From a virus (taxonomy: Duplodnaviria > Heunggongvirae > Uroviricota > Caudoviricetes): a stretch of 64,000 bases of DNA. The notes under the pieces were generated by a model, which saw only the letters and a list, made by a program, of their open reading frames with translations, was not told the origin of the DNA and ran no database searches. Where the stretch lies: positions 12,067 through 76,066 of IMG/VR virus record IMGVR_UViG_2563366840_000011; one strand, given 5' to 3'. This document shows positions 16,851-37,109 of the stretch, piece after piece (the first letter of the stretch is position 1; each line of letters opens with the position of its first letter). A program made the translations under genes and the position numbers.

Positions 16851-17874
<1,024 letters not shown>

Positions 17875-17878
<4 letters not shown>

Positions 17879-18186
17879 ATATATTTATGATGAGGACGCT
17901 CGTGCTTATTGGCAGGATTTTCAATCTTAAAGGAGTACTGATGCTGCAGATAAGACTCAACTTTTTCTGACAATTTTTCTGCTACTTCCAGGAAGACTTG
18001 CCGGACGCTCCTTCTGGCTGCTGCCTCATAAAACTCCAGCGCAGCTCCTTCAACACGGTCCATGGCGACATCCAGGTCAAAAATTTCACCGTCAAAGCGT
18101 TCTTTGTCCTGTAAGGCTACAGTTACCGTAACTTTATTCTCAAAATTACGGACTCCTTTCACAACCAGTTCATAGTCTTGAGTCAT
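17875..18186 (-). CDS. ydfR: YdfR-like protein of unknown function inside the lysis cassette
   Basis: 103-aa ORF MTQDYELVVKGVRNFENKVTVTVALQDKERFDGEIFDL... between holin and endolysin. Confidence 0.6.
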
Positions 18187-18190
18187 TGGA

Positions 18191-18406
18191 TTACTCTCCT
18201 CTCGCAGCCTTACGCCTGTCTTCTTTAATCTTGAAATAAAGATTTGTCAGATACGTCAGCAGGCCAAAAACCAGGCTACCCAGCACACCGATTGCAGCCC
18301 ACTGTGACGGAGTTACTTTATCGAGTAACTGCAATGCCCAGAAACCAGCATTACCCGCCGATGTGCCATAGGCAACACCTGTTGTTAACTTATCCATTGA
18401 TTTCAT
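18191..18406 (-). CDS. essQ: Class II pinholin (phage 21 S-like) with dual-start motif
   Basis: ATG at 18406 gives [71 protein letters not shown] (71 aa), two TMDs, Met1/Met4 dual start; ORF track extends to 18481. Confidence 0.85.
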
Positions 18407-18625
18407 ATCCTCACCCCGATGTACACGGATGGTGCAATATGTTTGAAAAGATCGGAGTCTACGGGGTAGTTTTGACAGCACACGTTGTTCTCAACGGCGC
18501 TAAAAAAACATACACATTAAAAATGTGGGTAATTATTTTGAAAGAAAGTCATATATAAAATAATAATACGAGAAATGTTTTCATATTTAGTGTACTGTAT
18601 ACGGCCATTTATACAGGAAAAGCCT

Positions 18626-18796
18626 ATGTCAGAACGTAAAAACTCAAAATCACGCCGTAATTATCTCGTTAAATGTTCCTGCCCAAACTGCACCCAAGAG
18701 TCAGAACACAGTTTTTCAAGAGTACAAAAAGGTGCCCTTTTGATCTGCCCTCATTGCAACAAAGTATTCCAGACAAATCTTAAAGCTGTAGCCTGA
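18626..18796 (+). CDS. Hypothetical small zinc-ribbon protein (CxxC...CxxC)
   Basis: ATG at 18626 preceded by AGGAAAAG; MSERKNSKSRRNYLVKCSCPNCTQESEHSFSRVQKGALLICPHCNKVFQTNLKAVA; opposite strand to the late operon. Confidence 0.4.
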   Translation: MSERKNSKSRRNYLVKCSCPNCTQESEHSFSRVQKGALLICPHCNKVFQTNLKAVA

Positions 18797-18850
18797 TTGA
18801 TTTTATTAGTAACAAGTATTTTTTATATTTTAATAATATATTTAAAGCAG

Positions 18851-18880
18851 ATAATAAAAAACCCGCCTGAGCGGGTTTGA
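18851..18880 (-). terminator. Rho-independent terminator downstream of cspB
   Basis: Hairpin aacccgc-ctga-gcgggtt at about 18859-18878, followed on the minus strand by TTTTTTATT. Confidence 0.65.
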
Positions 18881-19159
18881 GATTGTGGTGCTTTTTGTGG
18901 GAGTCATCCACTTACGCACTTTGTTTTGCCATGCCAGCAGTTAGCTTCTGCTGTAAAACTATTCATGCAGCAAACCTGCACTTCACCACAATGGTTAGCA
19001 TACTTTTCCTGATTAAGATTTTGCCAAATATGCTAGCCATTGTTTCATGTATTGGACCTCCTTACTTTTTATTAAAGAGATCCAATATTCACTACTCTGT
19101 CCGTATCTCTACTCAGGCATCAGCCTTCTTCGTTATCGTATACAGACGAGCGATGAATT

Positions 19160-19375
19160 TTAATCAGTAATGATGACATTTGCTGCTGCAGGACCTTTAG
19201 CACCACTCTCTATAGAGAAGGTAACCTTTTGACCTTCAAATAAGGTTCGATAATTATCATTCTGAATCGCAGAAAAATGCACAAACACATCTTTACTACC
19301 ATCAACAGGAGAAATAAAGCCGAAACCTTTATCAGCGTTAAACCATTTTACTAAACCAGTCATTTTATTTGACAT
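19160..19375 (-). CDS. cspB: Cold shock protein CspB-like
   Basis: 71-aa [74 protein letters not shown]. Confidence 0.9.
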
Positions 19376-19675
19376 TCTACATTCCTTAACTTGAGCCTTT
19401 CGGCATAAATGGTTTGCATAACAGAAACGACTTCGTACTTAATTGGAGAGACTCAAAGAAGGAATAAGTGAATAACACCTGAAATGAGAACTGCTTTAGT
19501 AAACTACTTCGTATATCGTCTGTTCTTCAAACCGACGCAATCATTAACGCATAGTTGAACATATGAAGCAATGTTTATTTTAGACATCCAGCCATCTTCA
19601 ACCCCATCAAAAAACTATAGCTTTCTTCAGGAACGTGTGTATAGTGCGCCAAGTTATCAGTATTAAGGAATTTTT

Positions 19676-19888
19676 TTGTCCCGTAAAATGACAGGAATTG
19701 TCAAAACCTTTGACGGCAAAAGCGGCAAGGGTCTTATCACCCCATCCGATGGTCGTATCGATGTCCAGCTTCATGTTTCAGCGCTCAATCTCCGCGATGC
19801 AGAAGAAATTACCACCGGATTACGCGTGGAATTTTGCCGGATAAATGGTCTGCGTGGCCCTTCAGCTGCCAATGTTTACCTTTCATGA
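19676..19888 (+). CDS. cspF: Cold shock protein homolog CspF-like
   Basis: 70-aa [73 protein letters not shown]; divergent from cspB. Confidence 0.85.
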
Positions 19889-20164
19889 GCTATATTAAAG
19901 CTTTAATTTCAGGCCCCATCGGATCACACATGGAGAGTTTTTATGAATAACCCCGTCTGTCTTGATGACTGGTTGATTGGCTTTAAAAGCTTATGCTGTA
20001 CTTTGGCCGTAATAGCTCTGCTAATAATATAATAAGCAGACTCATTGTGTTTAGGGACATTGTACTGGAAGAAAACATTTTAAACATCAGGCAAATAACC
20101 AAGTCACCAGCTAAATAATAAGTTAACAGACATGAGTCCCGGGATGAGATTCAACATTACCATT

Positions 20165-20206
20165 GCCCCATTTAAAGCACAAAACCCGCTCATCAGCGGG
20201 TTTTCT
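20165..20206 (-). terminator. Candidate tR'-like terminator downstream of the late promoter (possibly bidirectional)
   Basis: Hairpin aacccgct-catc-agcgggtt at 20183-20206, followed on the minus strand by TTTTGTGCTTT; about 60 nt downstream of the candidate PR'. Confidence 0.5.
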
Positions 20207-20249
20207 ACTTTTTCTTAACGTCGGGTATACAAAGCCCATCGTTGAAAAA

Positions 20250-20278
20250 ATTTTATCCATATTTTTTGAAAAATGCAA
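20250..20278 (-). promoter_or_regulatory. Candidate PR'-like late promoter just downstream of Q
   Basis: Minus-strand TTGCAT, 17-bp spacer, TAAAAT, beginning about 30 nt after the Q stop codon. Confidence 0.5.
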
Positions 20279-20309
20279 ACATCATGTCGCCATCTTCAGC
20301 AAAAATCAT

Positions 20310-21062
20310 TTATCTCGTCACCTTCCTCAATTGCGCTTCCGCGTATGCTTCTTCCTGCCAGCACTTTGTTACCAGTTTACCAATGACGTCCGCATACCCC
20401 TTATACCACTGATAATCGGTCAGGTCTGGTACCAGCTTCTGGACATGACGTCGTGCCAGCGTGGTCGGTAAACGACTAAACCGGTTTCCATTACAACGCC
20501 CACAAATCTTATATACCGGTACGCCATGAAACCGGGTTCTTTTTTCATCCAGAACAATCCCTTTACCCTTACACCCTCTGCACGCTGTGCTGGCTTCGCC
20601 CTTACCATGGCAATGCTGACATAGTTCCTTCACCCATTCTTCCTTGATTACAGATTCCCCGCGTCTGTAGTGTTTCACCACTTCGCGCAATACATTATAA
20701 AATCCCGTACCTGAACAATGCTCACAGCGAGCCTTACTTGCCGCAGACCTGGAGTAATCAGCAAAGGCAAAACTCACGAGGTAAGGAATAATCTGTAACC
20801 GGATTTCTTCACTCAATTTGTTCAATGTCGGGTTATCCAGTGCCATCGCGTAATTTAGCAGGCCTTCAATCGCAAACTGAGGGTCCTGAACACCAACTTT
20901 TGCCAGAAATAAGGCCAACCCAAGTGGTGCTTTCGACTGCACCATCCCCTGCGCTGCCATTACATCCGTAATTGTTAAACAACCGGTGCCTGTCGCTGGA
21001 GCGTCATCGCTCAATTTTGGAGATTTTGGGGAGTAATATTTTGGTAAGGCTTCAAGGTTCAT
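20310..21062 (-). CDS. quuQ: Late antiterminator Q (Qin-type)
   Basis: From ATG at 21062: MNLEALPKYYSPKSPKLSDDAPATGTGCLTITDVMAAQGMV... (250 aa) with Cys-rich zinc-binding region; upstream of the lysis cassette. Confidence 0.85.
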   Translation of the reverse strand: MNLEALPKYYSPKSPKLSDDAPATGTGCLTITDVMAAQGMVQSKAPLGLALFLAKVGVQDPQFAIEGLLNYAMALDNPTLNKLSEEIRLQIIPYLVSFAFADYSRSAASKARCEHCSGTGFYNVLREVVKHYRRGESVIKEEWVKELCQHCHGKGEASTACRGCKGKGIVLDEKRTRFHGVPVYKICGRCNGNRFSRLPTTLARRHVQKLVPDLTDYQWYKGYADVIGKLVTKCWQEEAYAEAQLRKVTR

Positions 21063-21075
21063 GCTCGTTCTCCAC

Positions 21076-22125
21076 TTACGCCAGTACGCCAATTGCCAGC
21101 GCGCGATCGATAAAACGAAATATCAGCTCCAGTTGGGAGCCATACTTATCTTCAAATGCCACTGTATCCGTATGCAGCTCGTTGTGATGCTTTCTGCACA
21201 AAGGCAACACAAAGAGATCATGTGCTTTTGTTCCCATTCCGCCCTGCCCGTGACCAATCAGATGATGCGGATCGTCGGCTGGCATACCGCAGCAAGCACA
21301 CGGCTGTGTCTTAACCCAACGTGTGTATTTCTCCTTAACCCAGCGGCGACGTTTAGGCAGCTTCATGAAAGATTCCGGAGACTCTGGATCAACGGTGATG
21401 CTTACCACCGTCTTTTCCTGTGGTGATTTTTGTTGCTGGTGGGCGTAAGGCAACGGTGCAAGATTTTTTGTGCGTTGTTTCAATATGCTGGTGGCGGTCT
21501 GCTCTCCCGGTACGATGTCGCTTTCGCGGTACACCGAGCAGATTTTTTCCGCTGGTAATCCCAGCGAACGACGCGATACAGCCTCAGGTAGTGCATCCAC
21601 CACCTGATTGCAGACCGCCCACCAGGATAATTCAGCCAAAGATAATTCCCGCTCCTGCGTACCGCTTATTGCGTGACGGATGACGTCAATCACCCATGCT
21701 GTCAGATTTTGTTGAGCAAGCAGCTCCAGTGATTCCGATGTCTGGTCACGCAGTTGGTTGTCGCAGTGCCAGCACAACACCATTGCGCCGGTACCATAAC
21801 GGTGAATGACTGTTTCAGTGTGATGGTAATCGCCATTAGGCCACTGGCAGGATGTAACATGACGTAATAGCCAGTCGGACAATGCGCCAACGCCGCCAGC
21901 AGCACGAATCACCCGTTCGTTACTAAAAAACGGCAGCAATGTTTTGTCTTCCGCCAGCGGCTGGCGAACGGCAGGAACGACTCCGGATGGCAGATTACGC
22001 ATGCTTTTTGGTTCCGGTTCCACCAGCACTCGAGGATTATGAAATATCTGTATGGATTCACGGCCCGGCTTAAGGACCACCAGCCCAAGCTCAGGCACCA
22101 GAACAGGTCTAAGTAATACCCGCAC
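21076..22125 (-). CDS. ydfU: YdfU-like protein with C-terminal HNH-like Cys/His motif
   Basis: GTG at 22125 preceded by GGAGG; C-terminus ...QPCACCGMPADDPHHLIGHGQGGMGTKAHDLFVLPLCRKHHNELH; 349 aa from this start, ORF track extends to 22164. Confidence 0.7.
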   Translation of the reverse strand: MRVLLRPVLVPELGLVVLKPGRESIQIFHNPRVLVEPEPKSMRNLPSGVVPAVRQPLAEDKTLLPFFSNERVIRAAGGVGALSDWLLRHVTSCQWPNGDYHHTETVIHRYGTGAMVLCWHCDNQLRDQTSESLELLAQQNLTAWVIDVIRHAISGTQERELSLAELSWWAVCNQVVDALPEAVSRRSLGLPAEKICSVYRESDIVPGEQTATSILKQRTKNLAPLPYAHQQQKSPQEKTVVSITVDPESPESFMKLPKRRRWVKEKYTRWVKTQPCACCGMPADDPHHLIGHGQGGMGTKAHDLFVLPLCRKHHNELHTDTVAFEDKYGSQLELIFRFIDRALAIGVLA

Positions 22126-36891: not shown

Positions 36892-37109
36892 TGGATATAG
36901 CTTTAGTCCTAATATTTCTGGCGATGTATTTAACACTTGGCTGGTGTTGGGTATGCATCCTTGTCCGATTAGTGGGATTAGCTAATTTATCCCGACAGAA
37001 TTGCTGGTTTGCCTTTCTCTTATGGCCTTTGAGCATTATCGCGACCGATGCGAATCTGGAGGAAAACGATGGGACATCTCCTGAGAAATCTGACAGCAAA
37101 GACCTTTAA
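36888..37109 (+). CDS. Hypothetical small membrane protein
   Basis: 73-aa ORF MMDIALVLIFLAMYLTLGWCWVCILVRLVGLANLSRQNCWFAFLLWPLSIIATDANLEENDG... with two hydrophobic segments. Confidence 0.4.
   Translation: MMDIALVLIFLAMYLTLGWCWVCILVRLVGLANLSRQNCWFAFLLWPLSIIATDANLEENDGTSPEKSDSKDL

Follow-up and report, generated by a model that had tools for sequence, protein, structure and literature searches.

A probable λ-type Q-dependent late switch downstream of quuQ in the Qin prophage of Escherichia coli K-12

A Q cassette has been defined as a Q gene followed by the promoter pR′, a Q-binding element (QBE), a σ-dependent pause element, a terminator and the late genes; in λ the QBE sits between the −35 and −10 elements (PMC9388147). 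The λ pR′ pause element is a −10-like sequence, AACGAT, at +1 to +6, followed by a ‘discriminator-like’ GGG triplet, and pausing occurs at +16 (PMC4005639). Constitutive activity in lysogens is described for λ pR′, and antiterminated promoters have been suggested as a source of sRNAs (PMC7547250). In Stx phages the terminated pR′ transcript gives rise to StxS, an Hfq-binding sRNA that is made as a 258-nt precursor and converted by RNase E to 74 nt; both its Hfq binding and its targets have been demonstrated (PMC7547250). HnrS is a 66-nt multicopy prophage sRNA of EHEC (PMC13502914). The published work on NusA and RNA length concerns where Q engages, not the distance to the terminator (PMC4914094).

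We analysed a 64-kb stretch of DNA (64,000 nt; the window) that corresponds to Qin, the cryptic prophage of E. coli K-12. Over 4001 nt at the site described here there is one mismatch to MG1655, and K-12 MG1655 positions are obtained by adding 1,622,179 to window positions. All of the cassette elements lie on the minus strand, which is the strand of quuQ/ydfT. The minus-strand gene order is relB–relE–hokD–rem–ydfU–quuQ (ydfT), then the promoter–terminator cassette; beyond it are ynfS and cspF (plus strand), cspB (minus), ynfU (plus) and the lysis genes essQ–ydfR–rrrQ–rzpQ (minus).

The quuQ/ydfT gene (20310–21062, minus strand; RefSeq) encodes a 250-aa antiterminator of the λ-Q family, which is 41% identical to λ Q and matches Pfam PF03589 (E = 3.6e-54) and the Q-λ structure PDB 7UBM (E = 4.6e-36). 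Relative to λ Q, residues ∼114–160 of QuuQ are a 47-aa insertion in the zinc-ribbon arm; the QuuQ-type arm has four CxxC motifs and gives a match to the Pfam DnaJ CXXCXGXG family. The arm of λ Q touches QBE positions 11–13 and σ region 4. Because the insertion sits in this contacting arm, proteins of the QuuQ clade may recognise their site differently from λ Q. A Rho-dependent region is listed in the Rho-termination table of Adams et al. at K-12 1,643,015 on the plus strand (approximately window position 20836), antisense to ydfT, which implies antisense transcription over the Q gene.

For comparison across relatives, we collected ∼380 loci with proteins of the Q-λ family (36–100% identity), drawing on IMG/VR and on a set with one genome per species. 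These reduced to 174–183 distinct promoter-to-terminator variants, with 44 variants in the QuuQ clade. Loci L112–L130, L143 and others have a λ-sized Q (207 aa) and come from assemblies labelled Oceanobacillus, Bradyrhizobium, Kitasatospora, Shewanella, Segatella and others. In the contigs of this type that were inspected (e.g. L112, from a Pseudomonas assembly), the downstream sequence is λ's own pR′/6S sequence, and these contigs are most likely λ DNA contamination of sequencing libraries. Contig L090, from a MAG labelled ‘Veillonella parvula’, has a 99% QuuQ match and looks like a mis-binned E. coli prophage.

Promoter, spacer and pause element

The stop codon of Q is at 20310 and the −35 element begins 32 nt downstream on the same strand. 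The promoter that an earlier note on this DNA had placed here, TTGCAT-17-TAAAAT, can be read directly at 20278–20250 on the minus strand. The −35 hexamer, TTGCAT (20273–20278), aligns with λ TTGACT and is 100% conserved in the 44 QuuQ-clade variants, while matching the consensus at three of six positions. The −10 hexamer, TAAAAT (20250–20255), is TAAGAT in most relatives. A consensus scanner called the same promoter in the adjacent register, as TTTGCA-18-TAAAAT, with a score of 9/12. The match and its conservation together predict a σ70 promoter directly downstream of Q, equivalent to pR′.

Between the two hexamers is a 17-nt spacer, TTTTCAAAAAATATGGA (20256–20272, minus strand), a candidate QBE by its position, which is that of the λ QBE. 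The spacer is 77–100% conserved within the QuuQ clade. It differs between Q clades, yet a TT(C/G)...A-rich...TGG pattern is kept and is common to λ. Such clade-wise change is as expected for a site that is recognised by its cognate Q.

A 6-nt discriminator, TTTTTC, separates the −10 hexamer from AACGATGGG at 20243–20235. This 9-mer is the same as that of λ pR′ and has the same offset from the −10 hexamer. With transcription predicted to start at 20243, it would comprise a σ70-dependent pause element, AACGAT at +1 to +6 followed by GGG (20235–20243, minus strand), and by analogy with λ we infer σ70-dependent pausing near +16. The earlier note mentioned neither the minus strand nor the pause element, although no other part of the cassette is as diagnostic. 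In the QuuQ clade the element is 95–100% conserved. Across the family, 145 of 174 distinct variants contain AACGATGGG, which hardly changes even where Q identity is as low as 36%; the remaining variants are mostly altered at hexamer positions 3–4 (AATGAT or AACAAT). In locus L371 (IMG/VR UViG_2565956633_000004), a QuuQ-type promoter and spacer are joined exactly at AACGATGGG to the λ 6S body and tR′. Because this natural hybrid is fused so precisely, the pause element can evidently serve as a recombination joint.

The separate parts of the cassette are not rare in sequence. Promoter-like matches alone are not significant in a consensus scan of the window (12 found, 6.8 ± 2.5 expected), terminator-like strings alone number 8 against 3.9 expected, and the 9-mer alone occurs twice where 0.61 occurrences are expected. 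The other copy of the 9-mer, at 37065–37073 on the plus strand, lies in a GGAGG-N-ATG context, likely a gene start, with no promoter upstream, and was set aside as a chance match. In contrast, the composite motif TTG-N20-TANNNT-N6-AAYRAT occurs once in the 64 kb, against an expectation of 0.01. A regular-expression pattern based on the Qin promoter likewise picks up λ's own pR′.

Terminator, mapped RNA 3′ end and the edge of the module

The equivalent of tR′ is an intrinsic terminator at 20181–20204 on the minus strand, with a 10-bp stem and a GAUG loop. It was identified by scan and by folding, and the homologous hairpin is annotated in other phages. In the minus-strand reading the hairpin is AAAACCCGCU-GAUG-AGCGGGUUUU (20204–20181), followed by GUGCUUU. 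The minus-strand U-run is only four residues (UUUUGUGCUUU), and is five or more in 133 of 161 relatives. The consensus scanner also called the hairpin terminator-like on the plus strand (10 pairs, 5 GC, loop of 4), so that in sequence it is bidirectional.

The Term-seq data of Adams et al. (2021) for MG1655 contain an ‘orphan’ RNA 3′ end at 1,642,356 on the minus strand, which is window position 20177. The mapped RNA ends ...GCGGGUUUUGUGC-3′ at this position, 8 nt past the GCGGG of the stem. Supplementary file 1 of that study covers three conditions (LB OD 0.4, LB OD 2.0 and M63). The 3′ end appears three times in this three-condition table; two of the three entries have scores of 103,591 and 55,368, and the scores are comparable to or above that of the neighbouring hokD 3′ end. 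No plus-strand 3′ end at the hairpin is present in the same Term-seq list. Counted from the predicted start, the hairpin begins after 39 nt and the mapped RNA ends at +67; the spacing of ‘about 60 nt’ given in the earlier note for a hairpin and U-tract was therefore fair.

One of the three data sets has a second ‘orphan’ minus-strand 3′ end at window position 20009 (K-12 1,642,188), 168 nt past the terminator. An AT-rich hairpin antisense to ynfS is present there, and this end suggests either readthrough of a weak tR′ or processing. Taken together, the four-residue U-run and the 3′ end at 20009 suggest that termination is leaky.

In relatives, a terminator-like hairpin ends within 85 nt of +1 in 166 of 183 variants, compared with 20% at random positions in the same loci. 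By eye, these hairpins fall into at least 8 types with visibly unrelated sequences. It is therefore the presence of a terminator at this place that is conserved, not one sequence. The predicted RNA is ∼50–79 nt in 161 of the 174 distinct relatives, with a median of ∼60 nt; RNAs longer than 110 nt are predicted in only a handful of variants, λ among them. Versions of ∼60 nt also occur in the clade with the 207-aa λ-like Q (L124, L127 and L132). The earlier note had remarked that the Qin arrangement is much shorter than the λ 6S RNA, and this is correct (67 nt against about 194 nt). Since most relatives give similarly short RNAs, however, the Qin length is the family norm and no anomaly. With a promoter-to-terminator distance that is usually only 50–70 nt, it is the long 6S RNA of λ that is the exception.

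Within the 44 QuuQ-clade variants, the −35 element, the spacer, the pause element through +16, a CGTT motif and the terminator stem are 80–100% conserved, and conservation of the cassette exceeds that of synonymous positions at the end of Q. Immediately after 20181, identity drops from 80–100% to 25–65%. The end points of matches define a mosaic (recombination) boundary at 20174–20181, where phage and prophage homology ends: 24 of 35 matches in the phage collection stop exactly at 20181 and three at 20174, and matches to E. coli prophages break at 20174/20181 too. From these end points, Q and the cassette form a mobile module with the terminator as its downstream edge. Two phages, mEp460 (an isolate) and PhiR42_1 (complete), have the same cassette upstream of their holin/lysozyme genes.

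These data bear on an alternative in which only the terminator matters. The hairpin would end the ydfU–ydfT mRNA, and possibly the convergent cspF–ynfS transcript, the promoter would be a silent relic and the mapped 3′ end would come from upstream transcription. The symmetric hairpin with T-runs on both strands, the weak −35 hexamer and the cryptic state of Qin are all in keeping with this, and the 3′ end at 20177 could indeed come partly from ydfU–ydfT readthrough. Against it stand a promoter and pause element that are more conserved than the adjoining coding sequence and are kept in functional phages, and a K-12 −10 hexamer, TAAAAT, that is nearer to the consensus than the TAAGAT of the clade majority. 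The missing plus-strand 3′ end and the constitutive activity described for λ pR′ in lysogens (PMC7547250) also argue against this alternative. We therefore consider a terminator alone to be improbable.

The predicted 67-nt RNA

Transcription from the predicted start at 20243 to the mapped end at 20177 would give a 67-nt terminated pR′ RNA (20177–20243, minus strand; K-12 1,642,422–1,642,356), the Qin counterpart of λ 6S RNA. Its 5′ end is placed by analogy with λ and its 3′ end by Term-seq. The RNA folds at −26.2 kcal/mol (z = −5.55), and none of 200 shuffled sequences was as stable. In the minimum free energy structure, a 5′ stem-loop at 20217–20243 (minus strand) is predicted to sequester the RNA of the pause element: AACG and then UGGG pair with the CCCG and CGUU at +19 to +27 (AACG/CGUU and UGGG/CCCG). 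An A-rich single-stranded linker, AAGAAAAAGUAGAAAA, lies between this stem-loop and the terminator hairpin. The linker is the least conserved segment of the RNA (31–97% in the 44 QuuQ-clade variants).

The inverted repeat of the 5′ stem, AACG...CGTT with GGG/YYY, is present in nearly all cassettes of the Q-λ family, with a loop of 13 or 17 nt depending on the clade. In an alignment of 50 diverse relatives, pairing in register is seen in 94% of cells, compared with 30–53% when the partner is slid. The same 50 relatives gave no significant covariation in the stem (144/500 and 333/500 shuffles score at least as high as observed), and the 5′ side of the stem hardly varies among relatives. The predicted stem is compatible with these data but unproven, and a constraint at the level of the DNA is possible instead.

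The selected product might be the 67-nt RNA itself, acting in trans in K-12 as an sRNA like StxS, and the cassette might have been kept in the cryptic prophage for that reason. In favour of this are the threefold appearance of the 3′ end with scores at or above the level of hokD, the stable fold with its A-rich single-stranded linker, and the precedent of StxS and of antiterminated promoters as a source of sRNAs (PMC7547250). The linker, however, being the least conserved part, offers no conserved seed, and the 3′ U-run is only four residues long. A 3′ run of this length is poor for Hfq binding. In addition, a permissive search of 18000–22000 found no Rfam family at the site (best hits of 15–18 bits against thresholds of 41–124); the cspB thermoregulator was the only element of the searched region to score credibly.

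We also considered HnrS, which resembles the Qin RNA in its near-equal length, its origin in a prophage late region and its intrinsic terminator. This identity was rejected, as the 15-mer that is diagnostic of HnrS, the mazF 3′-end complement CCCAATCAGTACGTT, occurs neither in the window nor in any of the fetched loci.

A trans-acting sRNA as the selected product is an improbable explanation of why the cassette persists, but it is compatible with the main explanation and does not exclude it. More broadly, it is unlikely that the 67-nt RNA has a function of its own, whether as an StxS-like trans regulator or through the 5′ stem-loop as an unrecognised functional part of Q-λ-type antitermination. 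If it had, the 5′ stem-loop might shield the 5′ end, or hold the RNA in place once it is threaded through the Q nozzle.

The possibility of a small protein gene is very remote. A 51-codon open reading frame does span 20123–20278 on the minus strand (4643–4798 in L390) and is recorded as a ‘hypothetical protein’ in phage PhiR42_1. Its TTG start, however, is inside the −35 hexamer, its frame crosses both the terminator hairpin and the mosaic boundary, and RefSeq K-12 has no such annotation; the gene call is almost certainly spurious. A chance pairing of promoter-like and terminator-like strings, which the abundance of consensus matches and the second copy of the 9-mer might suggest, is very improbable given the rarity of the composite motif, the position right after Q and the mapped 3′ end, and is effectively refuted by the comparative sequence data.

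The proposed switch and described systems

The preferred explanation is that the block downstream of quuQ is the Q-dependent late switch of Qin, made up of pR′, a Q-binding spacer, a σ70-dependent pause element and tR′, and homologous to the switch of λ. We consider this highly probable. The resemblance to PR′/tR′ proposed in the earlier note is upheld by a λ-family Q, AACGATGGG at the λ spacing, a terminator, a mapped 3′ end and the co-inheritance of the block with Q in many phages.

By sequence identity with λ, σ70-RNA polymerase would start at A20243, and σ region 2 would re-bind the non-template AACGAT/GGG at +1 to +9, giving a pause near +16. Without Q, polymerase would escape and terminate at 20204–20181, producing the 67-nt RNA; its end at 20177 is mapped by Term-seq and its origin at this promoter is our inference. 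When present, QuuQ would bind the −35/−10 spacer and load onto the paused complex, probably together with NusA as for Q-λ. The Q-modified polymerase would then be resistant to termination and would pass tR′ and later terminators. Any expression or activity of QuuQ in the cryptic Qin is putative.

Readthrough from the cassette would be antisense over ynfS (19944–20033, plus strand) and cspF (19676–19888, plus strand). It would then run in the sense direction through cspB (19160–19375, minus strand), the first same-strand gene that a Q-modified polymerase would reach, to essQ–ydfR–rrrQ–rzpQ ∼1.7 kb on. The annotated essQ–ydfR–rrrQ lysis cassette occupies 17345–18406 (minus strand), ∼1.7 kb downstream of the terminator, and the downstream same-strand genes as a whole span 17345–19375 (minus strand). 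The late (lysis) genes essQ–ydfR–rrrQ–rzpQ are thus in the orientation of the cassette, and the csp genes in between are an extra feature. In PhiR42_1, a complete Qin-like phage of 48.7 kb, the same csp genes separate the terminator from S–ydfR–R–Rz, which argues that this arrangement is native to the lineage and not the result of decay in K-12.

Two other elements lie on this path. The cspA thermoregulator family (RF01766) matches 19144–19536 on the minus strand with 158.8 bits, covering the 5′ UTR and the first part of cspB, and is on the path of any Q-modified late transcript. Another strong terminator-like hairpin, AAACCCGCTCAGGCGGGTTT followed by TTTATT, is found at 18859–18878 (minus strand), 3′ of cspB. 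Because it precedes essQ, a Q-modified polymerase would need to pass this hairpin too.

The cassette is probably an unannotated, ordinary copy of the textbook λ-type Q/pR′/tR′ switch, and the textbook mechanism is unchanged by these findings. The cassette would provide a specific origin for an ‘orphan’ Term-seq 3′ end of K-12 and points to an unannotated transcript of ∼67 nt in the best-studied bacterium. The relatives also form a natural comparison set for λ Q, in which the pause element is near-invariant and the candidate Q-binding spacer depends on the clade.

Among the described systems, the cassettes of the Q21 and Q82 families (Pfam PF06530 and PF06323) share the regulatory logic and the genomic position of the Qin locus. 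Their Q proteins and QBE recognition are unrelated (PMC9388147), however, whereas the Qin locus belongs to the λ-Q family. StxS, the nearest functional precedent for an RNA from pR′ with a role of its own, is similar by description, as a short RNA that is terminated just 3′ of Q and comes from a late promoter that is described, or in Qin predicted, to be constitutive; it differs in its 258-nt precursor, which is processed to 74 nt, and in its demonstrated Hfq binding and targets.

Homologous cassettes occur in SfV, mEp460, Ayreon, 2H10, PhiR42_1 and Stx2c-converting phages, with 82–100% identity to Qin over the DNA between the end of Q and the far side of the terminator. Among their records, those of SfV and Ayreon already label the hairpin ‘terminator’. 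The records of these homologous phages carry no annotation of the promoter or pause element, and past the hairpin their sequence is unrelated to that of Qin, as expected of a mosaic joint.

Another close system is the λ pR′–qut–tR′ region with its 6S RNA, in which qut comprises the QBE and the σ-dependent pause element. It has a homologous Q of the same Pfam family, a 17-nt spacer, a 6-nt discriminator and AACGATGGG at +1 to +9, and in both systems an intrinsic terminator precedes the lysis genes. The differences are that the terminated RNA is ∼194 nt in λ but 67 nt in Qin, that the Qin spacer (the candidate QBE) has a different sequence, that the Qin U-tract is weaker, and that the 47-aa insertion of QuuQ places two extra CxxC motifs in the arm that contacts DNA and σ. 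Finally, tR′ and the lysis genes of Qin are separated by ∼1.7 kb of csp genes and small open reading frames, some of them on the opposite strand.
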